The notes beneath the pieces are model-generated. The model saw only the letters and a list, made by a program, of their open reading frames with translations, did no database searches and was not told where the DNA came from. Below are positions 4,003 to 35,722 of a DNA stretch of 35,722 bases, piece by piece (the first letter of the stretch is position 1; each line of letters begins with the position of its first letter). The stretch lies in NCBI GenBank assembly GCA_963827235.1, contig CAWHAE010000003.1:1-35722 (forward strand), written 5' to 3'. The DNA is from an uncultured bacterium. Its GTDB lineage: Bacteria; Chloroflexota; UBA5177; JANWHV01. A program made the position numbers and the translations under genes.

Positions 4003-4100
4003 CGGAGCGAGTCGCACGAGATCAGGCGCAGGCTTGAGCACCGGGTGAGATCAGGTGTGCTCTCTGGCGGCCGTAGGCAACGGGCGTTGCACCTGGCTGG

Positions 4101-4823: not shown

Positions 4824-4943
4824 GGCTGAAGTATCGCAGGAGTGCGGGTGGGTCGTCTATCGGTATCTCGCCTTCGGGTGCCAACGCGCGGCCAAAGAGC
4901 GGCATCGTTTCCCGTAGAGATTCGCCAGCAACATCATGAGACT

Positions 4944-6080
4944 GGCTCTTCCGCATCAAGCGTGATCTTCGGGGCGAGCGGGCTGGCACAGGGTACACTG
5001 TGAGAACGAATTGCTCCTCACCATGTGCTAGAAGCCTGCCATCGTCCGTGTCCAACCCTGTACTTCCGTTCACCCTGCCCGGCAGCGTCGTAGACAATGT
5101 CTGTTCTACTGACACCGCCGTGTTCGTACTGGCGCTCACGATCGCGCCCGGCCAACCCTGTCCGGATTGCGGCCAGCATTCGACTCGCGCCCGCAGCCGC
5201 TGTCTGCGTCGCCTGCGCGACCTGCCGGCTGCGGATCGCACCCTGCAGCTCTCGCTGACGGTGCGCCGCTTCTTCTGCCTGAACCCATCTTGTTCCAGAC
5301 GTACGTTCGCCGAGCGTCTGCCCGGTCTGGCCCCGCTGCGAGCCCGGCGTACGCCGCGCTTAACCGCGTCCTTGCGCGCCATTGGCTTCGCCTGTGGCGC
5401 GGAGGCCGGCGCGCGCCTTGCCAGATGCCTACGTATGCCTACGAGCGGCGACACGCTCCTGCGCATACTCCGCGCCACGCCACCGCAGGTCTCGCCGCCA
5501 CCACACGTGATCGGCATTGACGATTTCGCCCTGCGCAAGGGCCGCGTCTATGGCACGATCGTGGTGGACCTCGAACGTCGGCGCCCTATCGACCTGCTCC
5601 CTGAGCGGACAGCGGCAGCTATCGCGGCACGGCTGCAGAGTGAGTCGCAGATCGCGGTCGTGGCACGCGATCGCGCGCAGGACTATGCGCGCGGCGTGAG
5701 TGACGGCGCACCGCAAGCACAGCAGGTGATCGACCGTTTCCATCTCCTCCTCAACCTGCGCCAGGTCGTCGAGCGCTTCGTGCATCGGATTCGACCGGAT
5801 CTGCGCCAACTGCTGGCCCAGGCTGATGCTAGAACACCGTCTACGCCGGCGTCGCTTGATTACCCACCCGCCCCACGCTACGATCCAGGCCCGACGCGAC
5901 TGCAGGTCCAAGCGGCGAAGCACGCCGAGCGCGAGCAACGCTTCTGTGCCCTCAAGGAGGCTCAAGAACGTGGGCTGAACCAGCCTCAGATCATGCGCCT
6001 GACCGGCCTCTCTCGCCCTACCGTGCGGCGATGGATGGCCGCCGACGTCCTACCACCCGAGCGGCGTGGCTACCGGCGCG
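4944..6080 (+). mobile_element. Truncated ISL3-family element (left end plus 5' part of transposase)
   Basis: Starts with GGCTCTTCCGCA, an ISL3-type left IR. ORF from 5000 has the CPDCG...RRFFCLNPSC zinc finger, VIGIDDFA, RDRA and IDRFHL. After ERRGYRR the sequence stops resembling a transposase, and I found no right IR. Confidence 0.85.
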
Positions 6081-6404
6081 ACGGGCATGGGCCAGATCAC
6101 AGAAGGCGCCTTCGTGATCAGCAACCTCGCCAGCAACGAGGCGGGTGCCGGCTGCAACACCGAGATGCGGCAGACGACCCTCACGGCTACGAACCACGAC
6201 AGACTGGTGCTGGACGCCACCGGCATCAGTTGCACGACGAGCAAGACGGCCGTCACCGCGGTGGATGCCTACCAGGTGGTGGGAGGGACCGGGCGGTACA
6301 GCGGCGCACGCGGCTTCGGCACTGACACCGCGAGCGTCATTATTGGCAAGACGGCTGCCTTCACGCTTACCGGTATCCTGTCCACCTCCGGCTCGCTGAT
6401 GTAA
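6080..6404 (+). pseudogene. 3' remnant of a small beta-rich secreted-type protein (GGTGRY.GA.G motif)
   Basis: VVGGTGRYSGARGFG motif recalls dirigent/allene-oxide-cyclase-like hypothetical proteins. The 5' end is replaced by ISL3 sequence. Confidence 0.5.
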
Positions 6405-6446
6405 GTCCGCCCGATGCGTGCCCGGTAGCTGGAGCCTCCCTCGCCG

Positions 6447-6689
6447 GTGAGAGGCGCAATGGGCAAGGCAGACCGCACAGATGGCAAAGGAGCGTCACCG
6501 TTGGGGACCGGGCAGCCACTGGCCGTCGCGGAGCTGGCACGGCGCGCGCAGGCCGCCCTAACGCAGGAGCAGCTCGCGTTGGCCGAGGAGCTGCTTCTAC
6601 GCCTGCTCGCTCACGCACCAAACGAGCCCGGCTGCGCCGCACAGCTCGCCGCGCTGTATGCACGGCGCGGCCGTCATGGCCGCCCATGA
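6447..6689 (+). pseudogene. Short TPR-like fragment
   Basis: AQAALTQEQLALAEELLLRLLAHAPNEPGCAAQLAALYARRG resembles one to two TPR motifs. Confidence 0.35.
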
Positions 6690-6829
6690 GCACCTAAGTG
6701 AAGTACCCGGCGGGGCACCACGGTAGGGTTCGCACACTGAGCTGAACTGGCCATGAAGGTCGCGATCGAGCCCTGCCCCAAGGAGAGGCTGGGTGGCGGC
6801 CTGCCGACGGACTGGAGGGAAGTGACTCG

Positions 6830-7310
6830 ATGAGATGGTATATGAGTGTCCCTGTAGCGGCCGCTCTGCTGGCCGGCACCGGCACGTGCCTAGGCCTGGG
6901 CACGCCAGCCCGAGTGGCGCCGGTCTATACGGTCGGGCATGTGCTGGCTGGACTGGCCCGGGACCCGGAAGCCTGGACGGATCGCACCTTCCTCCTCCGC
7001 GGCACCGGCGGAACCATCCTCGCCAGCACGGACGACGGCACCAGCTGGAGCAGCCGCACGTCCGGCACGAACGACAACCTGTGGGGCGTGGGCGTGGCCT
7101 GCCCGGGCACGAGCGCATGCTTTGCCGTGGGCAGTGCTGGGACGGATAGCGCGCGGCCGTCGGCGACCAAGCACGGTGCTGACTAACGCAGACAGACGCT
7201 GGAGTCACATGGACAAGGGCGGTCGTCGCGGGTGGCAGCGCCACGATACAGCTGCTGGGCGTCACCTGTGCCGGCGCGCACAGCTGCAAGACCGTGGGCC
7301 GGAGAGGCGG
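6830..7310 (+). pseudogene. Degenerate fragment of a Cys-containing BNR/YCF48-like propeller protein
   Basis: GTILASTDDGTSWSSRTSGTNDNLWGVGVACPGTSACFAVG, then AGVTW...LLGVTCAGAHSCKTVG in a shifted frame; same repeat type as 7500-9632. Confidence 0.6.
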
Positions 7311-7499
7311 AGATCCTGCGTCTCTGTTGAACGGCGGCTCGACGTCTGCGTGGCCCCGGGTCAACGCCTGGCTCGGATTTCGCTGGGTAGGGCCCCGGCA
7401 CTCCGGGCAGGGTGGGCCTTGCCACCCGCAGCCACTGAGCGAACGCGTGTCCGGACGGCCGGGTGATACGTCAAAGCGGCTTGACCCGCAGGCCCGGAC

Positions 7500-9632
7500 T
7501 CAGGACGTTCGGCTCATCGCGCCTGCCAGGATGGTGCCGTCCGAGCCGACCGCCAGGCACTGCGTGCTGGATGGACATGCGATCGCATGCAGGTTCGCGC
7601 TGACGCCGGTAGCACTGCTGGCCCAGGTGTTGCCGCCATCCGCGCTCGCCAAGACCGTGCCGCCATCGCTCACGGCCAGGCAGACGTTGCTCGAGGCGCA
7701 GGCGATGCCGTAGAGGAACTTGTCGACGCCGGAATCACGGGCGGCCCAGGTGCTGCCCGTGTCCGCGCTGGCGAGAATGGTGGCCTGGCCACCCGCCGAC
7801 TGGCCTACGGCCAGGCATGCAGTACTGCTTGGACAGGAAACGCCAAACAGTCTGGCGCTGGTAGCGTAAGCGTGATTGGACCAGCTCATCCCGCCGTCTC
7901 CGCTGACCAGGATAGTGCCCAGCTGCCCAACTGCCAGACAGGTGCTACTGGTCGGGCAGGCGATGCCTTGCAGCTCGGCGTCTGTGCCTGACCGCTGGCT
8001 GCTCCAGGTGTCACCCCCGTCTGTGCTGGCAATAACCGTGCCGCCGTTACCGACCGCAAAGCACCTGCTGCTTGTGGGACAGGCGATGGCGTTGAGCACG
8101 CTTTCGGTGCCGGGGCTCAGGCTACTCCAGTCAGCACCCCCGTCGGTGCTGGCCAGCATGCCGCCAATACCGGCGACCAGGCAGTGGCTGCTCGACGAGC
8201 AGGCCGCACCGAGCCACTGGTCGTCCGTGGTGCCAGCACTGGGCGCGCCGCTTTTCCATGTGTTTCCTCCATCCGTGCTGACAAGGATCGTGCCGCCGTC
8301 TCCCACGGCCAGGCACTCCGCACTGGTCAGGCAGGCAATGCCGTAGAGCCAGTTCATAGTGGGAGAAGGACGGCGGGTCCACGTCACGCTGACGGTCGGG
8401 GTTGTGCTCTGCCCAGGCGTGCCGGTCGCGGTGCCCGGGCCGGGTGTGCCGGCCGCCTGCGGCGCACCGGCCGCAGTGCCGGCCCGAATTGTGCCAGCGT
8501 TGCCCACGGCCAGGCACAGGCTGGTGCTGGGGCAGGCGATGCCGAACAGGCCGTACGTGGTGGCCGCGTTCACGCGCTGCCAGCTCGCGCCGCGATCGTC
8601 GCTCACGAGCAGGACACCGGGATAGGCATAGGCTACATGGCAGACAATGCCGCGGCTGATCGCATCGTAGTAACAGTCCGGCGAGCTGTTGTTCCAGCCG
8701 ACAGCCACGCAGGTACTGCCGCTTGGGCAGGTGATGCCGGCCAGGGCCGTGGCCCCGACGCCGTGCGGCAGGTGGCGGGTGGTCCAGCTGGCACCGCCGT
8801 CCTCGCTAGCCAGAATGGTGGAAAGACGGCCCACGGCGAGGCAGGCCTTACCCGCCGGGCAATCGACGCCATACAGGGCGACCCCGGTACCCGAGGCACG
8901 ATGGTGCCAGGTAGCACCGCCGTCCGCGCTGGCCAGCATCGTTCCCTTGTCGCCCACCGCCAGGCAGGCAGTGCTGGTCGAGCAGGTGACGCCGTACAGG
9001 GTGCTGCTCGTCCCTGAGGCACGGAGGTGCCAGGTGGTACCTCCATTTGCGCTGGCCAGCAGCGTGCCCTTGTCGCCCACGGCCAGGCAACTACTTCCGC
9101 TGGCGCACGTGACGGCATCCAGGTTGACACTCGTGTCCGAGGCGCGACGGTGCCAGGTAGCACCGCCGTCCGTACTGGCCAACATCGTGCCCTTGTCGCC
9201 GACTGCCAGGCACGACGTGCCGCCGCGGCAGACGACACCGGTCAGCGTGTTCGTCGTACCCGAGGCATGGCTTTGCCACGACAGGCCGCCATCCGCGCTG
9301 GCCAGAATCGTGCCTTTGTCACCGACGGCCACGCATTCGCTGCTACTCGCACAGGCGATGCCAAGCAGACCCTGGCTCGTACCGGAAGGGCGGGAGCTCC
9401 AGGGCGCAGGCGTGGCCGCAGGTGGGTTGGGCGAGACCTCGGCTGCGCGGGGTGTCCACGCGCCCGTGAACGCGGCCGGCCAGGCCGCTGTGTTCTGGCC
9501 ATTGCCGCTCGCCAGCGCACAGCCGGGACCCGCGGGGAGAAGATACAGCAGCACTGCGCACAGGGGGAGAAGCCTGCCCGTCGTGCCGGCCCGTACCCAC
9601 GTACCGACGACGGTTGCCCGACGCTTCGGCAT
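7500..9632 (-). CDS. Secreted tandem beta-propeller protein (BNR/YCF48-like, 7+7 repeats)
   Basis: GGAGG RBS before ATG 9632; hydrophobic signal-like N-terminus; 14 repeats of ~41 aa with consensus W..SGT..L.GIAC.....CLAVG..GTILAS.DGG.., split 7+7 by a Pro/Thr/Gly linker. Confidence 0.85.
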   Translation of the reverse strand: MPKRRATVVGTWVRAGTTGRLLPLCAVLLYLLPAGPGCALASGNGQNTAAWPAAFTGAWTPRAAEVSPNPPAATPAPWSSRPSGTSQGLLGIACASSSECVAVGDKGTILASADGGLSWQSHASGTTNTLTGVVCRGGTSCLAVGDKGTMLASTDGGATWHRRASDTSVNLDAVTCASGSSCLAVGDKGTLLASANGGTTWHLRASGTSSTLYGVTCSTSTACLAVGDKGTMLASADGGATWHHRASGTGVALYGVDCPAGKACLAVGRLSTILASEDGGASWTTRHLPHGVGATALAGITCPSGSTCVAVGWNNSSPDCYYDAISRGIVCHVAYAYPGVLLVSDDRGASWQRVNAATTYGLFGIACPSTSLCLAVGNAGTIRAGTAAGAPQAAGTPGPGTATGTPGQSTTPTVSVTWTRRPSPTMNWLYGIACLTSAECLAVGDGGTILVSTDGGNTWKSGAPSAGTTDDQWLGAACSSSSHCLVAGIGGMLASTDGGADWSSLSPGTESVLNAIACPTSSRCFAVGNGGTVIASTDGGDTWSSQRSGTDAELQGIACPTSSTCLAVGQLGTILVSGDGGMSWSNHAYATSARLFGVSCPSSTACLAVGQSAGGQATILASADTGSTWAARDSGVDKFLYGIACASSNVCLAVSDGGTVLASADGGNTWASSATGVSANLHAIACPSSTQCLAVGSDGTILAGAMSRTS

Positions 9633-21361: not shown

Positions 21362-21380
21362 GCCGCCTGTTTCACATCCA

Positions 21381-21482
21381 CATCGGTGGTTGGTGGGAGA
21401 AGTCCGGTTCCATTCCGGCGCTGTCCCGCAACTGTACACCGGCCTTCCGCCGGCAAGCCAGGTCGCCCACAACTACCGGATG
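21381..21482 (+). promoter_or_regulatory. Cobalamin riboswitch (short variant)
   Basis: GGGAGAAGTCCGGTTCCATTCCGGCGCTGTCCCGCAACTGT...AAGCCAGG contains the conserved CCCGCAACTGT and B12-box elements; closing stem CATCGGTGGTTGGTGGG / CCCACAACTACCGGATG. Confidence 0.85.
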
Positions 21483-21512
21483 CCGTAGACCCTCGAAAGA
21501 AGGGGCAGGTAC

Positions 21513-22493
21513 ATGCTGCGATCGGCGTTCATCTCCTCTGCTGTGCTCGGCGCCCTCCGTGCTGCTGCTTTCAGCCCGCTGTCTGCGCGCCGCGGGAGCC
21601 TCACTACCATCTCCATCGCACTCAACTGGTTTAGAAACGTGGAATTCGCCGGTATCTGGACAGCGCAGGAGAAAGGCTGGTGGGCGCAAGCAGGCCTGGA
21701 AGTCACGACCAGGCCCTTTGACGGTACCAACGATCCCACGATCCTGGTTGCTGCGGGAAAGCTCCAATTCGGCATCCACGACGGCGCCTCGGTCATTCTC
21801 GCGCGTGTAGCGGGTTGCCCGATCAAAGCCCTCTGGGCATCGGGCCAGAGGTCGCCCTTCGCCTTCATCACCGTGCCAAAGAGCGGAATCACCAGCCCCA
21901 AGGATTTCAAGGGGAAACGGATTGGCTTTCCCGCCGATGGGCGCTACGTGCTGGATGTGATGCTCAATGCCGTCGGACTGAGCGAAGCAGATGTCGTACC
22001 TATCGTGGTCGGCTTGGACCCGGCCGTCCTGCTGGCCGGAAAGGTGGACGCCTATCTCGGCTACCTGACCGACGAGCCGATCGAGATTGCCCAGCGGTAT
22101 CACGTGAAGGTGAATGTGATCCCGGCCAGCGCCTATGGCTATGACTTCTACAGCGACGTGCTCTTCACGACCGATAGCATGATGCGGTCGAATCCCGCCC
22201 TGGTGAGGAGCGTCGTGGCCACGATCGACCGAGGCTGGAAGTATGCCCTGGCCCATCCGTCCGAGATTGCACGCTATGTGGTGCCGGCACTGGACTCCCA
22301 GGACTCGGTGTTGCAGCAGACGGCGGAGTTAGCGGCACTGGCCACGCTGGCCTCGGCGCCCGGCGCACCGGTCGGGAGCATGACGGCGAGCCGATGGCAA
22401 ACAGGGATTCGCTTGCTCGCCACGTACAAGAAGATCCGCGTCGCGGTGCCGGCCAACAGTGTCTACACAGCCCGATTCCTGCCGGCGACCTAA
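21513..22493 (+). CDS. ABC transporter substrate-binding protein, NMT1/THI5 (ThiY-like) family
   Basis: LNWFRNVEFAGIWTAQEKGWW...GLEV, PKDFKGKRIG, GKVDAYLGY, YGYDFYSDVLFT, RGWKYALAHP. Confidence 0.85.
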   Translation: MLRSAFISSAVLGALRAAAFSPLSARRGSLTTISIALNWFRNVEFAGIWTAQEKGWWAQAGLEVTTRPFDGTNDPTILVAAGKLQFGIHDGASVILARVAGCPIKALWASGQRSPFAFITVPKSGITSPKDFKGKRIGFPADGRYVLDVMLNAVGLSEADVVPIVVGLDPAVLLAGKVDAYLGYLTDEPIEIAQRYHVKVNVIPASAYGYDFYSDVLFTTDSMMRSNPALVRSVVATIDRGWKYALAHPSEIARYVVPALDSQDSVLQQTAELAALATLASAPGAPVGSMTASRWQTGIRLLATYKKIRVAVPANSVYTARFLPAT

Positions 22494-24687: not shown

Positions 24688-25950
24688 TCAGCCCTTGAGG
24701 ATCGCCAGGAGCTGTTCGCAGCTCATTCCCTGGACGGCACCGATCGCCAGCAGGCGCTCGGCGTAGGTGCGTTCGGCAGGACTCACGCTTTCCGCGAAGC
24801 CCCGCAGTACCGCTGGCCAGGCCACTTGCGAGCGCGCCAGGATGGCCGCGATATCCGGCGGCAGCACCACGCCCAGCGCCTGTAGTCTGGCAATGACCTG
24901 GGCACCGTCCGATCTGTGATGGAGTCCATGAGGGCCGCCGTCTTGGTCGGGCGATGAGGGCGAGCCCGCGGCCGGCCATGAGTCGCTGTCTCCTGCAGCT
25001 CCGATAGAGGCTGACGGCGGAGGCACGACCCCCCGATCGGCCTGTGCAGGCTCAGCCAGGGTTGGAGCACGACCCTCCGCCTCCCGGCCATTCTCAGGCG
25101 CCAGACCGGGATCGTGCTGCGGCACGCCGCTTGAGGAGGAATTACCAAAGTTTGGTAATTCGATGCGTTGACGACGCCCGCCGGCGCGGCGGTCAGGCTT
25201 CGATGCATAGACTTCTCGCGGCCGAATTGTCTCGCCTAGGCGTGCGCGTTCCAACCAGGCGAGCCTTGCTTCCGTCAGGCGGATGCTGGCAATCGCCGCG
25301 GCCGCCGATTTGGAGAGCAAGCCGCTCTCGACCGCTTCCTCGACATCCTCGTAGCGCAGCAGTCGCAGTCGCTCGTCGACGTAGCCTTGCGATCGCTGGA
25401 CGCGCTCCGCTACGCCTTCGGTGGTTAGCTTCTCTATCCGCATTAGCTCCTTGAGCGCGCGAGCCTCCTCGACGGGCTCGAGATCCTCTCGCTGCAGATT
25501 CTCGATGAGCTGCAGGACCCGCTGCTCAGCCGCCCTGGTCTCCGTCACCACTACCGGCACGCGCGCCAGCCTGCGCCGCTCCTCATCGCTCGCGGCGCCG
25601 CTGATCGCCAGCCGAACGGCGGCGTACCGACGCCCTCCGGCCACGATCGTATAGCGCATGTCCCCGTCGCGGCCCAGCCCTTCCTGCCGCACAACGAGAG
25701 GCTGGAGCACGCCATACTGGACAATCGAGCGCGACAACTCCGCGAGACGATCGGGATGCATGTGCCTGCGGGGCTGCGCGGGATCCGGCGTGAGCTGGGC
25801 AATGTCCACCTCACGCGCACCAACCAGCAAACGATCGTTTCCAAGCTGGACGTTCGTGGGCGGGGTCGAGGGCTGAGCAGTGGCCACTCGCGGTCCGGTA
25901 GATATCAGCGGTCCCGCTACTCTCGGCCCGGTCTTCCGCGCCGCACTCAC
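24688..25950 (-). CDS. parB: ParB/Spo0J-family partition protein
   Basis: PDPAQPRR, GVLQPLVVR, IVAGGRRYAA (G for E in the GxRR CTPase motif), LIENLQREDL, followed by an HTH; overlaps the parA stop. Confidence 0.9.
   Translation of the reverse strand: MSAARKTGPRVAGPLISTGPRVATAQPSTPPTNVQLGNDRLLVGAREVDIAQLTPDPAQPRRHMHPDRLAELSRSIVQYGVLQPLVVRQEGLGRDGDMRYTIVAGGRRYAAVRLAISGAASDEERRRLARVPVVVTETRAAEQRVLQLIENLQREDLEPVEEARALKELMRIEKLTTEGVAERVQRSQGYVDERLRLLRYEDVEEAVESGLLSKSAAAAIASIRLTEARLAWLERARLGETIRPREVYASKPDRRAGGRRQRIELPNFGNSSSSGVPQHDPGLAPENGREAEGRAPTLAEPAQADRGVVPPPSASIGAAGDSDSWPAAGSPSSPDQDGGPHGLHHRSDGAQVIARLQALGVVLPPDIAAILARSQVAWPAVLRGFAESVSPAERTYAERLLAIGAVQGMSCEQLLAILKG
25140..25160. promoter_or_regulatory. 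parS-like palindrome inside parB
   Basis: AATTACCAAA-G-TTTGGTAATT, perfect 10-bp arms, AT-rich in GC-rich DNA; second copy at 29537-29553. Confidence 0.6.
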
Positions 25951-26720
25951 GTTATGGCCTCTACGGGAATCATGCGCGCAGCGAGCGACCGGAAAGCCGC
26001 CGCCGCGGCCGAGCGCGGGCTGCTCGCTACTACCGGCGTTCTCGCGTTGATCGCGCGCTCTACTAGCGGTGAATGGGGGATGGGATCGGCGATCAGTGCC
26101 CCATACGCCGATGTCAACGCCCGTAGCCCGTCCCGCTGTGGAGCTTCGTCCGCATGATAGTTGGACGGCAGAATAGACACGATCTCGGCGGTCACGAAAC
26201 GGTATCGGCGCAACTCCTCCTGGGTGGCGAAGATGTCGACGAGCGCGTCGATATCCTGCTGAGCCCCCGTCCGGGTCGGGACCACGGCCACATCCCCGGC
26301 CAACATCGCGGCAGTTTGCGTGAAGCCAAGGAGCGGGGCCGTGTCAATGACGATCGCGTCATAGTCTTCGCACACATCCTCAAGCAGGAGCCTCAGGCGC
26401 ATCGGGCCTGTAGGATTCTGCGCCAATGCCAGAGAGGTAGCCTCGATCGAGCGGTCGCCGGGAGCCAGGTCAAGCATTAGGCCAACGGGGCGGATAATGT
26501 CGCGAATGCCGCGCGGCATGTCCGCGATGCGGCTGCCGATTCCATACTCGGGCCTGACGGGCTCATCCGAAAGAGCGCGGGTCAAGCTCGCCTGGCTGTC
26601 GAGGTCCACCAGGAGGCAGCGGCGTCCGACGGCGACGAGGGCGCCGGCGAGATTATACGCCGTCGTCGTCTTGGCACTGCCACCCTTGCGACCCAGAACC
26701 GCAATCTGCACGGTGCTCAC
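25947..26720 (-). CDS. parA: ParA/Soj-family partition ATPase
   Basis: Deviant Walker A KGGSAKTT, LLVDLDSQ, IVIDTAP; GTG start at 26720 inferred. Confidence 0.9.
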   Translation of the reverse strand: MSTVQIAVLGRKGGSAKTTTAYNLAGALVAVGRRCLLVDLDSQASLTRALSDEPVRPEYGIGSRIADMPRGIRDIIRPVGLMLDLAPGDRSIEATSLALAQNPTGPMRLRLLLEDVCEDYDAIVIDTAPLLGFTQTAAMLAGDVAVVPTRTGAQQDIDALVDIFATQEELRRYRFVTAEIVSILPSNYHADEAPQRDGLRALTSAYGALIADPIPHSPLVERAINARTPVVASSPRSAAAAAFRSLAARMIPVEAIT

Positions 26721-26772
26721 AACGTCGCCCTGCCCTGCCTGGTGGTCCACGAAGGCTGGAATCGCTCTGTCG

Positions 26773-27066
26773 TCAACGCAAGGCCCTTCCACGACTCTCG
26801 CGAACGCGGCGCGGCTCATGCAGGGCCCGCGCGGCGAGGAACTCCTGCCCAAGGGCTTCGAGCGATTCCGTCTGCCCTGGAGTCTCCCTGGAGCCGTCGT
26901 CGAAGTGAGCGGCAAGCACCGATGCAATGACCTGGTTGCGGGAGAGTCCGGTCTGTGCTGCCTGCTGCTCGATCTGTTGCACGGTCCTGGTGCCGAGGTA
27001 CACGGTGATCGTGCGCTTTCGTTCATCGTCGGGCAGTCGCGGCCGACCAAGCTTGCCTCGAGCCAT
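26773..27066 (-). CDS. Ribbon-helix-helix (CopG-like) DNA-binding protein
   Basis: GRPR..DERKRTITVYL (strand), VQQIEQQAAQTG (helix), LSRNQVIASVL (helix); directly upstream of parA. Confidence 0.7.
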   Translation of the reverse strand: MARGKLGRPRLPDDERKRTITVYLGTRTVQQIEQQAAQTGLSRNQVIASVLAAHFDDGSRETPGQTESLEALGQEFLAARALHEPRRVRESRGRALR

Positions 27067-27085
27067 AGGATCCAGTTCCCTTGTG

Positions 27086-27115
27086 AGTATCTTTGTTTAA
27101 ACAAAGTTACCGCAA
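27086..27115 (-). promoter_or_regulatory. Putative promoter of RHH-parA-parB with an overlapping palindromic operator
   Basis: Minus strand TTGCGG-N18-GATACT; perfect 16-bp palindrome CTTTGTTTAAACAAAG (27091-27106) fills most of the spacer. Confidence 0.55.
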
Positions 27116-27158
27116 TCCGCGGCCGCATAAGCAGCTAGCTGTGGACAACTACTCGATT

Positions 27159-28568
27159 CTATCGTTCGCGTCTGCGAGCTTGGGCGCTTGGCGGCCACTG
27201 CCGGCTCTCAATTCGGGTACGCAGGAAGCCCGCCACATTCTCGATGCCTTTGCCGCGATCGCCATTGACATAGGCGAGCCAACCATGAATTCGCCTCAGC
27301 CCCTCAGGGTCGGCCGCGACATACCGTTGCACGAGGTCTTTGGTGAAATGTCGACTGAGTGCCTCGGCGACGCTGAAGGCCCCAAGCGCCGCATACGTGT
27401 CCTCCAGATCACGGCGCACTGCCGCGAGATAGGATCGCTTCTGCTCCTCTTCGGGTGTCCAGTCTTCCTCGCCCTGGCCAAGGAATTGCCGAGCCGAGTA
27501 GAAGACCTCCGTGCTCACACGCACACCCCAATTCCGCGCCGTGGCTTCGATGTCAGCCCGCGCCAGGTCACGTATGCACGTGACAGCGGCGTTGCTGTCG
27601 TCGGTCTCGAGGAGAACCTCGTCATCTGCCAACTCGTACGCACTGATTTCATCGTCGGTGCGAAGCACCACACCACCGCCCCCTTGGTGTTGGCTATCTT
27701 CCGGGGTTGCCTTGGCTGGGTCTACCTTAGTGGGAGTGTCCTTCGGGTCTTCCGAGGGAACCAAGCTGGTTCCCTCGGAGGTATACCGTGGACCGCGTGC
27801 GAACTCCGGTGGTACCGTCAGGAAACCAGCTTGGTCCGCCATGGCATGTCCGCGGTCCGCGTCGAAACCACGTGGGCGCGTCCCGGAACCACCTGGTTCG
27901 CTCAGGCTACTACCTGGTTCTCCGGCGAGACTACCTGGTTCGTCCATGGACTGCCTGCCATCGTTGGTGTCAGCGAGGCGCTCGGGATCCTGAGCGAAAG
28001 TCGCTTCCAGGAGACTCGACCAGTCGGAGCGAGAGCGCAGTCGAACATTCTTGCGTCGTAGAGGTTCCCAGTTGCGCGGCACGAGGTCCGCCGCGCGCTC
28101 AATTGCCTCCTCCAGCGTGCATCCTCCTGAGCGGAACGCGCCGACGAGGCTGGCCAGCCCCTCCTCGATTGGCAGCGGCTCCAAGAGGTAGTAGACATTG
28201 TTAGCCTTGCTGCCGTCCTCGTTCATTCCTCGCTGTACGTGGATCAGCTTCAGGTCGGAGAGCAGGGTCACCGCGCGCACGACCGTGGCTCGACCCTTCC
28301 CCCAGTGCCTGGCCAGGCGGGAGAGGGACGGCCAACAGTACTGGTCCTTGTTAGCCATGCAGGACAGGGAGCAGTATATGGCGAAGACGTCAGCACCCAG
28401 CAACGGCCCATACTCGTCGACGACCAGGTCGTGAACCCAGAAGCGCTCGTTAGTGCGCATATCACGCACCACGATGCCGCCTTCCAGCAGCGCTTCGTCG
28501 CTGCGTCCGACGCTCATGGGCGTAAGCGCTCGAGCGCTGGAAGACAGCCGGGCGCGATCGCCGGTCAT
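27159..28568 (-). CDS. Putative replication initiator with N-terminal HTH (HTH_36/phage-replisome-organizer-like)
   Basis: FWVHDLVVDEYGPLLGADVFAIYCSLSCMANKDQYCWPSLSRLA...RATVVRAV.LL.DLKLI...NNVYYLL; low-complexity middle; C-terminal IENVAGFLRTRIE. Start uncertain (28568 or 28625). Confidence 0.7.
   Translation of the reverse strand: MTGDRARLSSSARALTPMSVGRSDEALLEGGIVVRDMRTNERFWVHDLVVDEYGPLLGADVFAIYCSLSCMANKDQYCWPSLSRLARHWGKGRATVVRAVTLLSDLKLIHVQRGMNEDGSKANNVYYLLEPLPIEEGLASLVGAFRSGGCTLEEAIERAADLVPRNWEPLRRKNVRLRSRSDWSSLLEATFAQDPERLADTNDGRQSMDEPGSLAGEPGSSLSEPGGSGTRPRGFDADRGHAMADQAGFLTVPPEFARGPRYTSEGTSLVPSEDPKDTPTKVDPAKATPEDSQHQGGGGVVLRTDDEISAYELADDEVLLETDDSNAAVTCIRDLARADIEATARNWGVRVSTEVFYSARQFLGQGEEDWTPEEEQKRSYLAAVRRDLEDTYAALGAFSVAEALSRHFTKDLVQRYVAADPEGLRRIHGWLAYVNGDRGKGIENVAGFLRTRIESRQWPPSAQARRRER
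27755..27945. repeat. Intragenic ~21-bp degenerate repeat array (candidate iterons)
   Basis: ACCTGGTTC at 27891, 27912 and 27933; degenerate units continue leftwards at 20-22-bp spacing to the palindrome GGGAACCAAGCTGGTTCCC near 27756. Confidence 0.6.
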
Positions 28569-28626
28569 GACGAGCTCGCCAATCGCGCCGTGGTCAAACG
28601 CATGGCCCGGGCTGGTACCGCGCAAC

Positions 28627-28656
28627 TTGACAGTCGATCGGGCACCAGACTAATAT
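28627..28656 (+). promoter_or_regulatory. Sigma70-type promoter firing against the gene direction
   Basis: TTGACA (28627-28632), 18-nt spacer, TAATAT (28651-28656). Confidence 0.6.
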
Positions 28657-28661
28657 TGAGC

Positions 28662-28819
28662 GTAGAAAGACCACTCCCGAGGTGACGGCCAGTCACGTCA
28701 GGAAGTCTTGATTGGCTCTGCTGCTGGTGATGCACCGGGACCTCCAATCCACAGCATCACTAGACATTTCTACTGCTCGGTTGAAAACCTCTGCGTATGT
28801 CAGTACGCAGGGGTTTTTT
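28662..28819 (+). ncRNA. Candidate structured counter-transcribed small RNA (~160 nt)
   Basis: Bounded by the promoter above and a terminator. Stems: 28662-28668/28767-28773, 28682-28686/28692-28696, 28724-28733/28754-28763. The G-U pairs form only on the + strand. Confidence 0.6.
28784..28819 (+). terminator. Rho-independent terminator
   Basis: AAAACCTCTGCGTA-tgtcag-TACGCAGGGG-TTTTTT; hairpin with one G-U pair followed by T6. Confidence 0.8.
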
Positions 28820-28955
28820 GTTGGCACTTGCCTGGCTGGCAAGGTGACCACGAGCAGGCGGTCCTGTGACCGCTCGGCACGCAGCCGCCGCGCATTACGG
28901 TGGCAGGTCGTCGCGTCGTCTACTCATCACTGTCCTCCCACCCGGAGTCTCGCCA

Positions 28956-29396
28956 TCACGCCACTTGATGACCGGTCTGCGGCCTGGCCCTTGCGTGTTG
29001 CATCGAGCAGAGCTCATCCATCTCACGTGCCACCACACCGATATCCATGAAGAGAAAGGCGGACTGGCCGTCCAGGACTCGGACCGCCTCCGCTCTGTTG
29101 CGGAAGATGAAGACTTCACCGTTGAGCCCGACAAGGCTCAATTCACGCAGAGGATCAGTCGAGTGTTCCCGCAGCTTGTCCACTGCCCTGCGGATCATCT
29201 GTAGAGTGATGCCCTGGTCCTTCAGCCGCATCACGACGCGTATGCGTATGAGGTCATCGAAGCTGTAACGACGCTTCACCGCGCCGCCGCCACTGGGCTG
29301 CAAGAAGCCTGTCCAGGCCCAGTAGTCGAGCTGTCGGGCGGTTGCACCGGCGAGACGACAGGCCTGCCCGGTCGTAAAAAGCTCCTGTTGCTCCAA
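28956..29396 (-). CDS. MerR-family HTH regulator
   Basis: GGAGGT RBS with TTG start; FTTGQACRLAGATARQLDYWAWTGFLQPS...RRYSFDDLIRIRVVMRLKDQGITLQMIRRA. Confidence 0.85.
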   Translation of the reverse strand: MEQQELFTTGQACRLAGATARQLDYWAWTGFLQPSGGGAVKRRYSFDDLIRIRVVMRLKDQGITLQMIRRAVDKLREHSTDPLRELSLVGLNGEVFIFRNRAEAVRVLDGQSAFLFMDIGVVAREMDELCSMQHARARPQTGHQVA

Positions 29397-29420
29397 GGTT
29401 CTACCTCCGGCACCCAGACG

Positions 29421-29474
29421 CATCGCAACATACATGTTGTAATGGATTATAGGGGGGCAGAGGCGAGTGGTCAA
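29421..29474 (-). promoter_or_regulatory. merR promoter with dyad near the transcription start
   Basis: Minus strand TTGACC (29474-29469), 17-nt spacer, TATAAT (29451-29446); dyad CAT-CG-CAACAT-AC-ATGTTG-TA-ATG at 29421-29444. Confidence 0.7.
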
Positions 29475-29536
29475 AGCGCGGAATGCGAGCGCAGCACGGC
29501 CGGCAGCCAGGCGGTGAGCCGAGCGGCGCACCCGGA

Positions 29537-29553
29537 TTACCAAACTTTGGTAA
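29537..29553. promoter_or_regulatory. Second parS-like palindrome (intergenic)
   Basis: TTACCAAA-C-TTTGGTAA; same 17-mer as the core of 25140-25160, read on the opposite strand. Confidence 0.6.
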
Positions 29554-29908
29554 CTCCCGGCCGCGACGCCGAGTACTGCTGCAGGCAATCGTGCAGCGCG
29601 GTCGTGGCCGCGCTACCGGCGACGCCACGAAGTTCCCGCGCCGCTGGAGGTACGCGTGGTCGTTCGCAGAGGGCGCCGGAAGGCCGGCGCCGCATCGAAC
29701 AAGCGTGACCTGCGGGATCGCCGATGCTCGTGCGCATGCTGTTGGCGCGGCGACAGCCGGACACACCGCCTCCCTCCCCGTACGGGTCGCCATCGACTAG
29801 GGTGCCGGCTTGTCAATAGCCACCACGCCGGCCGGCACCTGGACCGAATCCTGAGCAGAAGCGCGGGCGTTTGCGCCGCCGGCGCTTCCGCTCTGTAGCG
29901 ATCGGGGT

Positions 29909-31042
29909 CTACATAACCATCTCCAGCGGCCATGGCGCGGTGCACGCCGACCACGTAATGGTGATCGGGGCATCTGGATCCGTCGGCAGTGTCTTGGGCT
30001 CATACTCGCCGATCATGCCTTCGGCACGCAGTCGATCGAGCGCCTTTGCCAGTGTGCGATTGCTGCCGCCCGTGCGCGTGTTCTGAATGCCGGCTATAGC
30101 GATCAGGCGCTCGCGCGCGATCACCAATGGCTTGCCGTGCAAGTCCATCTGACAGCGGGCCAGGTACTCACGCAGCACCGCCTGCGGCAAGGAGCGCGCG
30201 GTTGCAAGGGAACGCCCTCGATGGGACGGAACGCGGGGAATGAGTGTGTAATCAACACCCGGGCGACCCTCCCTGCTGCGCAGGCCGTCATACCACAGTT
30301 GATGAATGCGCACGCCGACGCGGTCTGGGAGGCCCTGCGCGAACACCTCGAGGATGTTCAGGTGCTGCGTCTCTTCACCGGCTTGATAGCCAACACTCTC
30401 CAGTAGCGGTGCAACCACGGCCTGCTGCTGGCGGCCGGCATTCTCGTGCCGGATGCCCACATGCGTGAGGTGCAGCGCCAGAAGGGTAGACGAGATCTGC
30501 CGGCGGTTCACAGAGTAGTGCCGGCCTTGTGCATCTCGGGCATACCCCATGCGGTCGAGCAGATCGTTGAGACTGACCGTGAACGCGGGGTTACGCCAGT
30601 TGGGCGGATCGTTCGCGATGGCATACAGGCACAGCATCAGCTCGCCCGCGAACGGGCCCAAAGCCGCTTTGGCGATCTCCACTGCAGCTTCACGCACGGA
30701 CTGTGGATCGTCCACGTCGGGAATGGGCACCACGACCATGGTACGTGCGCGATGCAATTCCCACCGCTCAGGGGCACTGCGACCCTGCTCGTCGAGCAAC
30801 GGTTGGTGGATGTCCGCTTGCGCCAGGAGGTAGCGATTGTCCACGCCGAACGCGCCATCGGTGCCTGCCTCCGCGGCAATTCGTCGTCGATAGACAAGCT
30901 CCGCCTTGCCCAGCCTGCCGCCGCTGACCTGGTCGACCTCGTGCACCGACCAATCAATGGGCATCGACGGCAACTGAATGTCGCACTCGGCGGGTCGCTC
31001 GGGCAGCCGTCGCGTAGGTTTGAACGTACGAGCGCCCGCCAT
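29909..31042 (-). CDS. Putative plasmid replication initiator (tandem winged-helix, Rep_3/TrfA-like)
   Basis: FTVSLNDLLDRMGY...NRRQISSTLLAL and LVIARERLIAIAGI...NRTLAKALDRLRAEGMI resemble the two winged-helix domains of iteron-binding Reps; lies just downstream of an iteron-like array. Family assignment is by eye. Confidence 0.55.
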   Translation of the reverse strand: MAGARTFKPTRRLPERPAECDIQLPSMPIDWSVHEVDQVSGGRLGKAELVYRRRIAAEAGTDGAFGVDNRYLLAQADIHQPLLDEQGRSAPERWELHRARTMVVVPIPDVDDPQSVREAAVEIAKAALGPFAGELMLCLYAIANDPPNWRNPAFTVSLNDLLDRMGYARDAQGRHYSVNRRQISSTLLALHLTHVGIRHENAGRQQQAVVAPLLESVGYQAGEETQHLNILEVFAQGLPDRVGVRIHQLWYDGLRSREGRPGVDYTLIPRVPSHRGRSLATARSLPQAVLREYLARCQMDLHGKPLVIARERLIAIAGIQNTRTGGSNRTLAKALDRLRAEGMIGEYEPKTLPTDPDAPITITWSACTAPWPLEMVM

Positions 31043-31154
31043 GGCACTTCCCTTCAGGCAGCGGTCCACCAGGCACGTGAGCCTGTATTGCACCGATTGA
31101 GGACTTCCTCCAAGCGTAGTATGTGCCGCCCAACCGCAGGCGATCAAGAGCTTT

Positions 31155-31320
31155 CCCGCGCCTTCACGCAAGTCGCATCCGCGCCTTCACGCGCCCGGTG
31201 CTCGCGCCTTCACGCATCTGGTGCCAGGAAGATCAAGCATACGGTGCTCGCGCCTTCACGCATCTGGTGCCTGCACCTTCACGCAACACGTGCTCGCTCG
31301 TTCACGCGCGGGGTGCCTGC
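31155..31320. repeat. Iteron-like array, 7 units at 23-bp period (candidate oriV)
   Basis: CCTTCACGC starts at 31161, 31184, 31207, 31253 and 31276; degenerate units at 31230 (AGATCAAGC) and 31299 (CGTTCACGC); consensus about GGTGCTCGCGCCTTCACGCATCT. Confidence 0.8.
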
Positions 31321-31447
31321 TGTTCGACCCCCCCCATAGCTGTCGTAGGACCATGGACTGGATGGAAGGACACTGTACTTGATGCCAAGGCTCCCTACGC
31401 GGCTATCCGACACGACGGCGGCTGTGCGCCGGAAAGTCTGAGCACGG

Positions 31448-31807
31448 CTAGGTCTGCGGCTGGCCACCGACCGCAATGATGATCGCGTTGACTGTTTCGT
31501 CCAGGATCGATGCTGGCACCGCTGTGCCAAGCGGCCCGTCGTGCAGAAAGTCGCGGTCGAGCGTTGCGATCTCTTCGCAGAAGAGTACGCTAGCGTGCAG
31601 CACACCACCCGTCCCCGCCTCCAGCGGCACGTGCGTCGGGCTTGCACGGCCAGTCGAGAAGATGGGCACCACAATGACGTCGTCAGACCGGCGGTTGCGC
31701 GTGTTTTCCGAGATCACGAGAGCTGGGCGCGGCTGATGCGGATCATTCGGCTGGCATGGCGTGTAGACGTACCACACGTCGCCGCGGCGAGGAAACGTTT
31801 CCGCCAT
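31448..31807 (-). CDS. mazF: PemK/MazF-family toxin
   Basis: MAETFPRRGDVWYV...PRPALVIS..RNRRSDDVIVVPI...SVLFCEEIATLDR..L; the true start is ATG 31807 within the longer tracked ORF. Confidence 0.85.
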   Translation of the reverse strand: MAETFPRRGDVWYVYTPCQPNDPHQPRPALVISENTRNRRSDDVIVVPIFSTGRASPTHVPLEAGTGGVLHASVLFCEEIATLDRDFLHDGPLGTAVPASILDETVNAIIIAVGGQPQT

Positions 31808-31808
31808 C

Positions 31809-31982
31809 TTAGCGGCGCGTCGCTGCGTACGTAGCAGCCGCGCGCCGAATGGCGCGCCATTCCAGCAGTTCTTGCTGCACGGTTGCGGACTCCGGCTCCT
31901 CGTACTGCCGCTCCAGCTCGGCTTGAACCTGCCGGCGCCGGAAGTCGCGCAGGGCCTCTTCCACCACGCGGCTGCGATTCGA
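31809..31982 (-). pseudogene. 5'-truncated RHH-type antitoxin
   Basis: Manual translation SNRSRVVEEALRDFRRRQVQAELERQYEEPESATVQQELLEWRAIRRAAATYAATRR*, with the stop 1 nt before the mazF ATG. Upstream DNA is an unrelated propeller fragment on the other strand. Confidence 0.65.
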
Positions 31983-32200
31983 GCCTTTGGGGAGTCTCCT
32001 GCAGCCAGATGCCGATTTGTCTCGCGGTAGGTGACGGTGGCACCATTCTCACCAGCACGGACGTGGGCGCAACCCGGAACATCAACTTCTCTGGCAACTG
32101 CCACCCGCTTTGGGGCCACGTCTGCCCAGACCTCCGCGCAGTAGCCTGCGTAACCGGCGGCACGTGTCTGAAGCTGGTCCGCCAAGCGGCTGGCCCTTGC
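31983..32200 (+). pseudogene. Another degenerate Cys-propeller repeat fragment
   Basis: LWGVSCSQMPICLAVGDGGTILTSTDVGAT...LRAVACVTGGTCL; same repeat type as 7500-9632. Confidence 0.65.
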
Positions 32201-32335
32201 CGAAGGCGGCCCGGTACATTTTCTGGCGAGAGCATGCGTGCCAACCTCCGCTAGGGTGTGAGGCGGGTAGCGCTGCGCCAACACTTCGACAGGCGCCGTG
32301 GATACCGCGAAGGTGAATGCCGTGGGAGGTACCGG

Positions 32336-33091
32336 ATGAGTCAAGGGTCTGAGCTCCGGCGCGGTGACAAGTCTGTTGGCCCCGGCAAGGCGCAGCCGCA
32401 CCGCTCCGATGCGACGCGGCCTGAAGCGAAATGCACAAATGTGCTCGGCGAGATTGACAGTATGCGAGCTGACCTGCTCAATGACGTGGACGCACGGTTC
32501 GCGCCTATGGTTCTCGAGCTGGAAACCGCTCTTCACACGTCGTCCGCAACCACGGCTCCGCTCGCGCGCCTATATCGGCAACAACTCGCGGCCCTCACGG
32601 AGGCGCAGAGGGACACGCGGCAACTGGTAGCCAAGCGCTTGGCCTTGACACGCCGAACATGCGAGGACCTCCAGAATCACGCGGGGTCAATCACGGCATC
32701 GCCGCGGGCATCAGTTGGCGGCGCGGCGGCTTCGGGTGGCCGCGCCGCATCCACGCAAAACAAGCTCGACCTCCACGGACTGGGAGCCGAAGAGGCGAAG
32801 AGGGTGGTCGACAGGTTCCTGCGTGAAGCCCATGACGGCAACGAGCTCCGCGTAATCGTCATCCACGGGCAGGGTAATCACAGCAAGGGCGGACCGGTTC
32901 TGCGCGCTGGTATTCGGGCCTATCTCTCACACCATCGGCTGGTCGAGCGGACGGAGACCGCTGGCCCCGCGGACGGCGGCGACGGCGCCACGATAGCATA
33001 CCTTCGTCGCGATATCCTGCCGGCCCGAGGTACTACTGCAACTCCATCACGAAGCTCGACGTTCCGCTCGCGCCGGACGTCGACGCCCTGA
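32336..33091 (+). CDS. Smr-domain protein with helical/coiled-coil N-terminus
   Basis: GGGAGGT RBS; KLDLHGL...VIVIHGQGNHS.GGPVLR..IR.YL...DGGDGATIAYL is the Smr signature. Confidence 0.85.
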   Translation: MSQGSELRRGDKSVGPGKAQPHRSDATRPEAKCTNVLGEIDSMRADLLNDVDARFAPMVLELETALHTSSATTAPLARLYRQQLAALTEAQRDTRQLVAKRLALTRRTCEDLQNHAGSITASPRASVGGAAASGGRAASTQNKLDLHGLGAEEAKRVVDRFLREAHDGNELRVIVIHGQGNHSKGGPVLRAGIRAYLSHHRLVERTETAGPADGGDGATIAYLRRDILPARGTTATPSRSSTFRSRRTSTP

Positions 33092-34535
33092 CGGCAGTGT
33101 GTGCAAGTGCGGGTGACGTGTCGGGCACTACGACTGTCTCATGCACCCCGGCATGGACGGAAGCATCACCATACTTCCCTGAAGAACACTGCCAATGTGA
33201 CGTCCGGCCTCGGCCACCGGGGACTGCCGCTCGGCGGGGGTCGGTGCCTCAGGCAACGAGCGTGCGATGACCGTCACGAGGCGAGCTCGGCGTTTCCAGT
33301 GGCTTCTGGCGGGACCCCGCTTGAGCCTTCGCCTGCCTGGGCGCCGGGGTGGGCCTCCTGAGCATTCGAGGCGCGGGCTCCTACTCTGGAGCAGCAGCTG
33401 CACGCTCGGCGCCCGTTGATTGGCGCCTGGTTTTGCACCGGCAAACCGTGCCCTTCTCAGGGACCATTGCCGGCAGTCGAGGCGACTGCCTCCACAGGGC
33501 ACATTGTGGTTCTGCTTCGCCGTGTCAGCAGGCTCGGCATGATTGATAGGCGTTCCACGCCGTGGTAATGGTTCTCGGCAGATATCGTGGCCGCCGGCAT
33601 GCCGTTACCCTACGTGTACGTCGGCTTCGACCACGGGGTCGCGGTAGTGACGGCGACTGCGCCCGTGATGATTGTAAGGCTTGCAGCGAGTGCAAGAGCG
33701 ACACGTGGTCTCACCAACCCATGCAACGTGGGTGTCGGGAAATTGGCTCCTGAACGCCAGAGTTCAGGGAGAAGAGGCGCGGCCAGCACGCCGAGTTCTG
33801 CGCGGACAGAGATCGTTGTCAGGGAACCGAGCGGTGTCCAGCCGGTGGCCAAAAGAGTTCGCCAATGACACTGAAGGCATTTGCCTGGCGGGCGATAGTG
33901 CTCGCCGCCCATTTCCGACAAAGGCGTGAGATGCGCAGGTCTGACTGCGACCAGGAGCACGGCCGTCGGACCGGCGTCGAATCGCGCTCCGTACGGAACC
34001 CGGGGATTACCGGAATGGCAGGTCGATGGCAACCCAGGTGACGCTCACAAGGCTTCAAGAGTGGACTAGAGCGGTCTGCTTCTGGTTTCGTCCGTTTGGC
34101 TGAGGGCACAGTCCGTTCCAAGACTGACATTGGAGGGGCTGGGGGCAGGCCTGGGCACTGCTGACATCGTGTTCGCGCATGTGCTCGCTCTGGAACATGT
34201 CTCATTCGGCGGCCTCACACGTCTTTGCGTGTTCTCCAGATACATGGTTGGCAAGCGCGCCACGCGGGATATGCGTGCGCGGTGTACGCCCCCTTCAATG
34301 CCAACTCGGGCGACGGTACCGCATAGCTCTGCCTTGCAGCGGCACAGCGTTGCGGGCGAATGCGACCCGAACTGGCTGTCGCTCATCGCGCCGGGCAAAC
34401 GAGCGGCTCCTCCGCTCTGAAGGGGCCCGGAAACACAATCTGCAGTGTGCGGTGCGACTCATCACAGAGTCTACGCGTTCGAGCCGTGCCGTTGGGGAAC
34501 CGGACCCGAAGACATCTTCTGGAGAGAGGTGGATA

Positions 34536-35722
34536 ATGGAGTGCTCGATCGTTCAAGTCAGATGGAGCACGCGATTGGCTTTGCGGCTGGTCGCGTGTTT
34601 GGTACTGCTAACGTTCTTACTGCTAGGCGTGCCGGCACAAGCTGCTGCTATTGCCACGGCGCCGGCGTCGATTTCAAGACTTCTGATCACCCCGTCGACC
34701 GTCGTGCCGGCGGGGCGCGTTCTCCTCACAGGCTCAGGTTTCTTTCCGGGTGAGCAAGTACTGTTGCGGCTGGACAACGTCCTTGTAGGAAACTGCTTCA
34801 CCAATGGGCACGGCACTTTCAGCACTGCACGCACCCTCAATACATCTCAGGGCACCCACACTGTGACGGTCGTTGGCAGCGTCAGCCACCGGGCGGCCTC
34901 CACAACGCTGCGGGTAGTTCAACCGGTTATCACGAGCACAGAGGTCGCTCCAAATACCGTTCATCGTGACGGCATCGTGCGTGTGAGTAGCACCAACTTC
35001 GTTCCCGGTGAGCTGGTCCTCATCCGCATCGGCAGCACACTCGTACAGGCAGCGACGGCAGACCACCGTGGGCGCATCGTTGATGTTGCTTGTACTGTGC
35101 CGAGCACGGCCGCCCACGGGGTAACCTACGTTACCAGCACTGGTTCGCGCAGCGAGCGTAGCTCGAGGGCTGCGTTGCGAATCACTCTGGTGCCATCAGC
35201 CAGCACGCAGCTCGCCCTTTCGTCGACGAGCCTTCATCGCGGAAGCACGGTCAGCGTCTCTGGTGGCGGCTTTCGGGCTGGGGAGATCGTGTTGATTCGC
35301 CTGGGCGGAGGACTCGTGCAAGCGGCAGTAGCCGATGCGCGCGGCAACTTTAGCAAGGCCAGATTCGGAGTGCCGGCGAATACCCCATATGGGAGGTTCC
35401 CGTCACGGCCACCGGCGCGCGTAGCGGGCGTCTGCGCTGGTGGAAGTGCGCATAACCATGGCGGTCAGCGCCGGGATCTCGGGCTCACCTACAGTGGTGG
35501 GGCGTCAGGGTATCGTCACGCTGTCTGGCTATGGCTTCCAGTCAGGCGAGATCGTGATTATCCGCCTCAACGGACAGGTGGTTCAGGCGGTCACCGCGGA
35601 TGGCCATGGGAGCTTTGTGCACACGAGCTTCCAGATTCCGGAGCGATTCCACAAGATCAAGGTGATGTTGCTGGCGAGCGGAGCGCGCAGCAGTCGTCAC
35701 GCCCAGATACGCATCGTGATCT
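34536..35722 (+). CDS. Secreted protein with about four Ig-like repeats (frameshift near 35400; runs off window)
   Basis: Manual translation: signal peptide (LALRLVACLVLLTFLLLGVPAQA), then repeats GSGFFPGEQVLLRL / STNFVPGELVLIRI / GGGFRAGEIVLIRL / GYGFQSGEIVIIRL, each followed by an A.A(D/N)..G-like segment. Not in the ORF track. Confidence 0.75.
   Translation, partial: MECSIVQVRWSTRLALRLVACLVLLTFLLLGVPAQAAAIATAPASISRLLITPSTVVPAGRVLLTGSGFFPGEQVLLRLDNVLVGNCFTNGHGTFSTARTLNTSQGTHTVTVVGSVSHRAASTTLRVVQPVITSTEVAPNTVHRDGIVRVSSTNFVPGELVLIRIGSTLVQAATADHRGRIVDVACTVPSTAAHGVTYVTSTGSRSERSSRAALRITLVPSASTQLALSSTSLHRGSTVSVSGGGFRAGEIVLIRLGGGLVQAAVADARGNFSKARFGVPANTPYGRFPSRPPARVAGVCAGGSAHNHGGQRRDLGLTYSGGASGYRHAVWLWLPVRRDRDYPPQRTGGSGGHRGWPWELCAHELPDSGAIPQDQGDVAGERSAQQSSRPDTHRD

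Follow-up and report, generated by a model that had tools for sequence, protein, structure and literature searches.

The window analyzed in this work, i.e., the whole stretch of 35,722 nucleotides, is a complete contig (35.7 kb, 65% G+C) of an 8-Mb genome assembly with a contamination of 9%. Two of its regions (positions 1-9004 and 28656-35722) match, with 98.7-99.0% identity, the two termini of C17, a 253-kb contig from this genome, and the window therefore bridges a circular replicon of approximately 273 kb. C17 contains about 398 additional bases near window position 31980, and the overlap of the two contigs reflects redundancy of the assembly or the presence of two closely similar variants of one replicon. 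The long ORFs surrounding the predicted small RNA that is the subject of this work (those for ParA, Rep, MerR, and the product of orf420) lie on the minus strand throughout, as the preliminary description of this DNA had stated, and the iteron array is likely the replication origin of the replicon (Table 1). For the MerR-family protein, the closest NCBIfam model was HspR, with a score under the cut-off of that model.

Table 1. Positions of the genes, signals, and predicted structures in the merR-rep region of the window.
Feature	Position	Strand	Basis or remark
ParA-type ATPase	25947-27128	-	downstream of rep
rep, 469 aa, N-terminal HTH_36	27159-28568	-	start set by alignment A1
Candidate leader ORF, 56 codons, GUG at 28735	28565-28735	-	GGAGG at 28745-28741
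-35 hexamer TTGACA	28627-28632	+	promoter scan; identical in 9/9 homologous sequences
-10 hexamer TAATAT	28651-28656	+	TAnnAT, 18-nt spacing in 9/9
Predicted small RNA, about 157 nt	28663-28819	+	start from the -10 hexamer (+/- 3 nt), end from the T-run
Hairpin 1, loop 28687-28691	28676-28702	+	consensus structure, alignment columns 21-47
Hairpin 2, stem GGUGAUGC/GCAUCAC(U), loop 28734-28753	28724-28763	+	consensus structure
Three-way junction	28773-28857	-	consensus, reaches beyond the small-RNA 3' end
Intrinsic terminator	stem 28783-28813 (G+C core 28788-28813), T6 28814-28819	+	
Micro-ORF MSRRRDDLPP-stop, GGGAGGA 5 nt upstream	28895-28927	-	downstream of merR
merR, MerR-family regulator	28956-29432	-	Pfam MerR_1, E = 1.1e-12
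merR promoter TTGACC-N17-TATAAT	29446-29474	-	promoter scan, 11/12 matches
orf420, 420 aa, no known family	29909-31171	-	
Iterons, about 8 direct repeats, 23-nt period, CGCGCCTTCACGC-N4-GGTGCY	31157-31340	none	upstream of orf420

The ParA ORF has a long N-terminal extension, and overlapping this part is a 97-aa ORF (26773-27066, minus strand) with weak matches to antitoxin-like or repressor-like families (E = 1e-4 to 7e-4). The annotated start of ParA may be placed too far upstream. In another part of the window (21370-21514, plus strand), the aptamer of an AdoCbl (cobalamin) riboswitch was recognized with 53.2 bits (cut-off, 50), which was the sole Rfam match of the whole window at the gathering score.

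The N-terminus of the Rep protein matches the Pfam HTH_36 family (E = 2.3e-08), and a search of NCBIfam gave no match for this protein. Nine PHROG families were matched (E = 2e-08 to 5e-04), six of them described as replication initiation proteins, two as O-like initiators, and one as a DnaD-like loader/DNA-binding protein. The context is also that of an initiator, with parA adjoining and with iterons placed 2.5 kb off or, in distant relatives, directly upstream of the gene. From these features we infer a replication initiator, for which the name rep is reasonable.

In the protein collection, 27 relatives of Rep were found, and the few with source names came from Chloroflexota MAGs. Searching of the genome contigs with the single Rep sequence found nothing and alignment A1 was used instead. 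The flanking DNA of the relatives was represented by 13 metagenome loci and two genome loci, the latter from genomes of the same genus, both of which were also matched in the DNA search at 73-74% identity. In the plasmid collection, no match to the intergenic region was found by blastn, and tblastn with Rep pointed only to three Azospirillum records, in which the HTH alone was aligned. Viral contigs screened for Rep relatives gave distant HTH matches only.

The preliminary description had delimited a plus-strand unit by a TTGACA-N18-TAATAT promoter and a T6 terminator, and both elements are present in the window and conserved among the homologs. The promoter scan of positions 27000-30200 on both strands (3.2 kb) indicated two sites, compared with 0.6 +/- 0.9 in shuffled sequences. 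One of them is the promoter of the small RNA (10/12 matches), which lies on the strand opposite to rep and 59 nt before its ATG, and the other is the minus-strand TTGACC-N17-TATAAT upstream of merR. The 18-nt spacer of the small-RNA promoter keeps its length in all nine sequences, and its sequence differs between lineages. At the other end of the unit, the terminator stem has 16 bp in the fold of the window, and the T-run following it consists of T5-T6 on the plus strand in 8/8 sequences, compared with 2-4 U on the minus strand. The 28783-28819 hairpin was absent from the output of the terminator scan, a probable reason being that the A-run preceding the stem can pair with the T-run. The unit thus delimited has its own promoter opposing rep within the leader, an intrinsic terminator that would define its 3' end, and conserved stem-loops whose loops would be available for kissing, i.e., the features of a countertranscript, and we consider it highly probable that the plus-strand RNA is transcribed.

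A small protein was also considered as the product of the plus-strand unit and rejected, since the longer frames pass the terminator without a stop and two of them reach positions 28869 and 29050; coding is also disfavored by a 1-nt indel that distinguishes close relatives in the loop of hairpin 2.

The small-RNA unit was present in every examined locus carrying merR-rep, which gave eight distinct full sequences and a truncated one. The loci in question are the window, L011, the group of L012, L014, L015, and L023, the pair of L013 and L016, and L010, whose contig stops 73 nt into the small RNA; L024 is identical to L014. Among these loci the Rep proteins are 48-56% identical and the MerR proteins 65-74%, and approximately five lineages are represented. 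The merR gene was found in all eight loci holding the whole small RNA. Three loci with Rep proteins of 40-42% identity (L017, L018, and L020) have neither merR nor the small RNA, and about six CTATGCCGAATCACAC repeats (iterons) are placed in them directly upstream of rep, after a homolog of orf420. To judge from this distribution, merR and the predicted small RNA form a pair that behaves as an inserted control cassette would.

The covariance model of the small RNA (R1) recognized one locus in its own 8-Mb genome, with no second or partial copy. The only other match was that of the redundant contig C17, which was rejected as a paralog, as the window spans both ends of this contig. Among 150 other genomes of the phylum, no true match was found, the match in genome G070 being a bare terminator. 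Of at least 120 viral-contig loci with the hairpin-2 pattern, the 80 listed were also searched with this model, and there was no match among them.

The plus strand of positions 28660-28821 folds with -67.3 kcal/mol (z = -4.56), and none of 200 shuffled sequences was as good; for the minus strand, -57.6 kcal/mol was obtained (z = -3.09). The consensus structure was calculated from alignment A2, comprising eight sequences without the truncated L010 and the duplicate L024. It consists of three hairpins with 35 pairs, in which 97.1% of the cells are paired, compared with 37-49% when the partners were slid. In five pairs both partners had changed, compared with 1.6 +/- 0.8 such pairs for shuffled sequences (0/500), a comparison that overstates the support, because only about five mutually related lineages contribute to it. 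The compensatory changes are confined to hairpin 1 (both partners changed in 2/9 pairs; 95.8% of cells paired) and to the terminator stem (3/14 pairs, 98.2% of cells). The comparison of homologous merR-rep loci, which had been proposed as a check of the preliminary description, thus revealed a conserved unit with compensatory changes in these two elements. The hairpin-2 stem shows no variation at 8/10 pairs across the eight sequences, so that no covariation evidence comes from this hairpin. Its loop contains CCUCC (28741-28745) and CCAAUC (28744-28749), with CUCC or UUCC preserved in 8/8 sequences.

Additional variation was found in a metagenome contig approximately 90% identical to the window. 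Its changes at positions 28694 and 28695 give two G-U pairs in hairpin 1, which are possible on the plus strand alone, and a G.G mismatch is replaced by U-G; a further change, 28808 C>G, disrupts one pair of the terminator. In the plus-strand consensus there are 33 G-U cells and two A-C cells, in agreement with the preliminary claim that G-U pairs favor this strand. The claim holds only in part, however, since the minus-strand consensus is nearly equal to it (32 pairs, with 19 G-U and four A-C cells; -34.3 vs. -39.7 kcal/mol for the plus strand), and for two of the eight sequences (L013 and L016) the better fold is that of the minus strand.

Two other elements of the fold described earlier are not conserved. 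The pairing of the RNA 5' end with 28767-28773 occurs in the minimum free energy fold of the window but is missing from the consensus of the eight homologs. GATTGG (28710-28715) and CCAATC (28744-28749) are indeed complementary, but the pseudoknot that they would form is not conserved and is no better than with shuffled linkers (a fraction of 0.13-0.44 of the shuffles equaled or surpassed it in the eight sequences); in the C17 copy, GATGG is read in place of GATTGG. With the closing stem and the pseudoknot both unsupported, the description of this RNA as more elaborately folded than a simple ctRNA is not upheld.

The stretch of the merR-rep spacer to which the predicted small RNA is complementary begins about 95 nt before the rep ATG and extends to about 250 nt before it. 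The ribosome-binding site of rep falls outside this stretch and is itself partly paired in most of the predicted folds. What lies opposite hairpin 2 is the beginning of a candidate leader ORF. The complement of this hairpin reads GGAG or GGAA, followed after 5-8 nt by GUG, in 8/8 sequences, with an invariant GUG CAU CAC. In seven of the eight sequences this frame is open over 56-82 codons, and in L011 over 48 codons (the L010 contig does not include its start). In the window, the TGA of this frame (28567-28565) overlaps the rep ATG as ATGA; the same arrangement is found in 4/8 sequences, and the stop is placed at +5, -8, and -19 nt relative to the rep ATG in three others and at -123 in L011. 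In dinucleotide-shuffled sequences the frame was still open in a fraction of 0.11-0.22 of the trials per sequence, open frames being common at 65% G+C, and therefore the case for the leader ORF is suggestive only; in L012 and L023, a second frame is open as well.

Pairing in trans between the hairpin-2 loop and the ribosome-binding site of rep was considered too and was no better than in shuffles (fraction 0.13-0.76).

A promoter scan of the intergenic region found no promoter of rep, and the likely source of a merR-rep transcript is the promoter of merR. This promoter was found by a regular expression in 6/8 sequences (the window, L011, and the four of the L012 group) and is followed, in the region 29426-29474 of the minus strand, by the palindrome CAACATGnATGTTG (CAACATGTATGTTG) at the likely start site, which is probably a site of autoregulation. 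Between the target of the small RNA and rep, no terminator-like site was found, so that attenuation of the pT181 or pIP501 type is unlikely.

These elements may be combined into the following model. The merR gene, the leader, and rep are assumed to be co-transcribed as one mRNA from the merR promoter, and a cis-encoded antisense RNA would start at a separate promoter of the sigma-70 type and stop at the intrinsic terminator. The CUCC/UUCC sequence in the loop of hairpin 2 (anti-Shine-Dalgarno) would meet the complementary mRNA loop with GGAG-N5-8-GUG, and the resulting RNA-mRNA duplex would block translation of the leader ORF. As the leader ORF ends on or beside the rep ATG, translation of Rep, dependent on that ORF, would then fall and the copy number would be limited. 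The parts of this model do not stand equally firm. That the small RNA controls rep in some manner is, in our opinion, probable, and the step of coupling through the leader ORF is tentative and somewhat doubtful. Taken as a whole, the locus is best explained by an approximately 157-nt countertranscript that represses rep and limits the copy number of the megaplasmid, a reading that we hold with a fair degree of confidence. The proposal of a copy-control antisense RNA made in the preliminary description is thereby retained as the best-supported one, given the conserved unit opposite the initiator leader, but without the elaborate fold attached to it.

The rep-sense strand carries elements of its own. 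In the consensus, the three-way junction is built of P1, a 7-bp stem formed by 28851-28857 with 28773-28779; P2, which is the inverted repeat CTTGCC-N5-GGCAAG at 28827-28843 (consensus CYTGCC-N5-GGCARG); and P3, the complement of the small-RNA terminator. In this structure, 91.7% of the cells are paired and 8/29 pairs are double-changed (3.6 +/- 1.2 in shuffles, 0/500), and the G-U pairs of P1 and P2 are possible on the minus strand only. As the sense structure extends past the 3' end of the small RNA, part of the conservation serves the mRNA; the P2 repeat could additionally act as an operator. Homologs of the micro-ORF were taken from the window, L011-L016, and L023. They have 9-13 codons, with sequences varying between lineages, and end with X-Pro-stop in 8/8 cases. 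The stop is located 50-54 nt before the inverted repeat and within a hairpin loop, both in 8/8 sequences. In its features, the putative micro-ORF looks like a stalling or termination-sensing leader. A promoter of the sigma-54 or sigma-70 type at the inverted repeat past the terminator was rejected, since its motifs are not kept in the alignment as inspected by eye.

The sense-strand parts were found in all four lineages in which they could be checked. The merR-rep spacer might then be an undescribed two-strand, multi-layer device, composed of the antisense RNA, the micro-ORF with the junction, and the rep-coupled leader ORF, which we consider unlikely in this complete form. If it were true, plasmid replication would respond not only to copy number but also to translation termination or to stalling that depends on proline. 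The invariant hairpin 2 might, in addition, be bound by a protein at the RNA level. The micro-ORF and the junction are the less ordinary parts of the locus and may be worth studying apart from the antisense RNA.

The same elements bear on the explanation in which only the rep-sense leader is functional, the hairpins and the "terminator" are its cis-regulatory parts, and the motifs of the plus strand yield no functional RNA. It would account for the conserved junction, whose P1 lies past the RNA 3' end and whose G-U pairs are restricted to the minus strand, for the Pro-stop of the micro-ORF at a fixed distance in 8/8 sequences, and for a minus-strand consensus fold that nearly equals the plus-strand one and surpasses it in L013 and L016. 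It leaves unexplained, however, why TTGACA and TAnnAT are kept at exactly 18 nt around a variable spacer in 9/9 sequences and why T5-T6 is present on the plus strand in 8/8 sequences against 2-4 U opposite, and the variant G-U pairs of hairpin 1 are possible on the plus strand alone; we therefore regard this explanation as improbable. Still less probable is that the inverted repeats (GTGATGC/GCATCAC and CTTGCC-N5-GGCAAG) are DNA operators of the MerR-family protein or of Rep. The arms of hairpin 2 are invariant, which exceeds the conservation of Rep (48-56%) or MerR (65-74%), merR always accompanies the element, and the predicted RNA does not include the second repeat, all of which would suit protein-binding sites. 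On the other hand, pairing is maintained in hairpin 1 and in the terminator despite changes of sequence, which argues for an RNA and not for a protein site, the hairpin-2 arms are separated by 19-21 nt, a gap wide for an operator of the MerR type, and the merR promoter has a different palindrome.

A plus-strand RNA might also exist and serve mainly another role, i.e., transcriptional interference, duplex-directed cleavage separating merR from rep, or action on a target elsewhere. Convergent promoters about 790 nt apart, a complementarity to the leader of approximately 157 nt that includes one strand of P1, and the lack of a terminator-like attenuator between the target and rep are compatible with such a role. 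Against such a role, the covariance model recognized no second or partial copy in the 8-Mb genome, the anti-Shine-Dalgarno motif of the loop faces a Shine-Dalgarno-GUG sequence, and pairing of the loop in trans with the rep ribosome-binding site remained at the level of shuffles; we give this possibility only a small chance.

The Rfam check proposed in the preliminary description revealed no family for the small RNA. With 4227 models, its region had no match at the gathering score, and the four matches within 28400-29100 (E = 0.21-4.4) reached 17-20 bits against cut-offs of 39-48, none of them belonging to a plasmid RNA family. The suggestion of a new structured RNA class may thus be kept as far as a new family is concerned, but the kind of RNA is already known. 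By position, parts, and likely logic, the predicted small RNA is a plasmid countertranscript outside the described families.

In the passages of PMC5717011 devoted to plasmid R1 (IncFII), copA is described as overlapping the copB-tap-repA spacer and acting on repA via the coupled tap; the regulator gene is co-transcribed with rep, and the leader frame stops at the rep start, so that the antisense RNA controls rep indirectly (PMC5717011). The order of parts given in those passages, i.e., regulator, antisense RNA, leader frame, and rep, is the same at the locus studied here, with a candidate ORF as the leader frame. The two systems differ in the RNA, which has about 157 nt and three hairpins here, whereas CopA has about 90 nt and two hairpins. 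They differ also in the regulator, which is of the MerR type and not CopB, and in Rep, which is an HTH_36/phage O-like protein. No second promoter in the style of CopB was found in the leader of the window, and the leader ORF is here only a candidate.

As far as the passages on pMV158 in the same source go, the copG-repB operon of this plasmid combines a repressor and rep, with a countertranscript against the intervening region, and the short RNAII acts directly on repB translation (PMC5717011). The palindrome at the operon promoter, with its possible autoregulation, is a feature shared with what is described there for pMV158, being found here at the merR promoter in 6/8 sequences. The predicted RNA differs from RNAII in that about 95 nt separate its nearest edge from the rep ATG, and the ribosome-binding site is left uncovered. 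Moreover, pMV158 is a rolling-circle plasmid, whereas iterons, ParA, and a replicon of approximately 273 kb are found here.

The ctRNA of repABC replicons is likewise a small antisense RNA in the operon, just upstream of the initiator and ending at an intrinsic terminator. It is about one-third the length of the RNA predicted here, which did not match the corresponding Rfam model, and the host in our case belongs, by source names, to Chloroflexota. The inc18 plasmid pIP501 combines the repressor CopR with RNAIII, a long multi-hairpin antisense RNA that attenuates transcription at a terminator preceding repR. A repressor protein alongside an antisense RNA of similar size is common to both systems, which differ in the terminator-like site, none having been found here from the target to rep.

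In the titles and abstract openings of the literature, nothing was found on the replication control of Chloroflexota plasmids, control RNAs included. The locus offers a testable control circuit for replicons of this phylum, composed of a regulator, an antisense RNA, a possible leader ORF, an initiator, and iterons, and its small RNA would supply a family absent from Rfam. If the proposed reading is right, the logic of R1 and pMV158, in which a repressor is combined with a countertranscript, occurs here, in a distant phylum, together with an unrelated initiator of phage-O-like type, and this would be a case of either convergence or module exchange.
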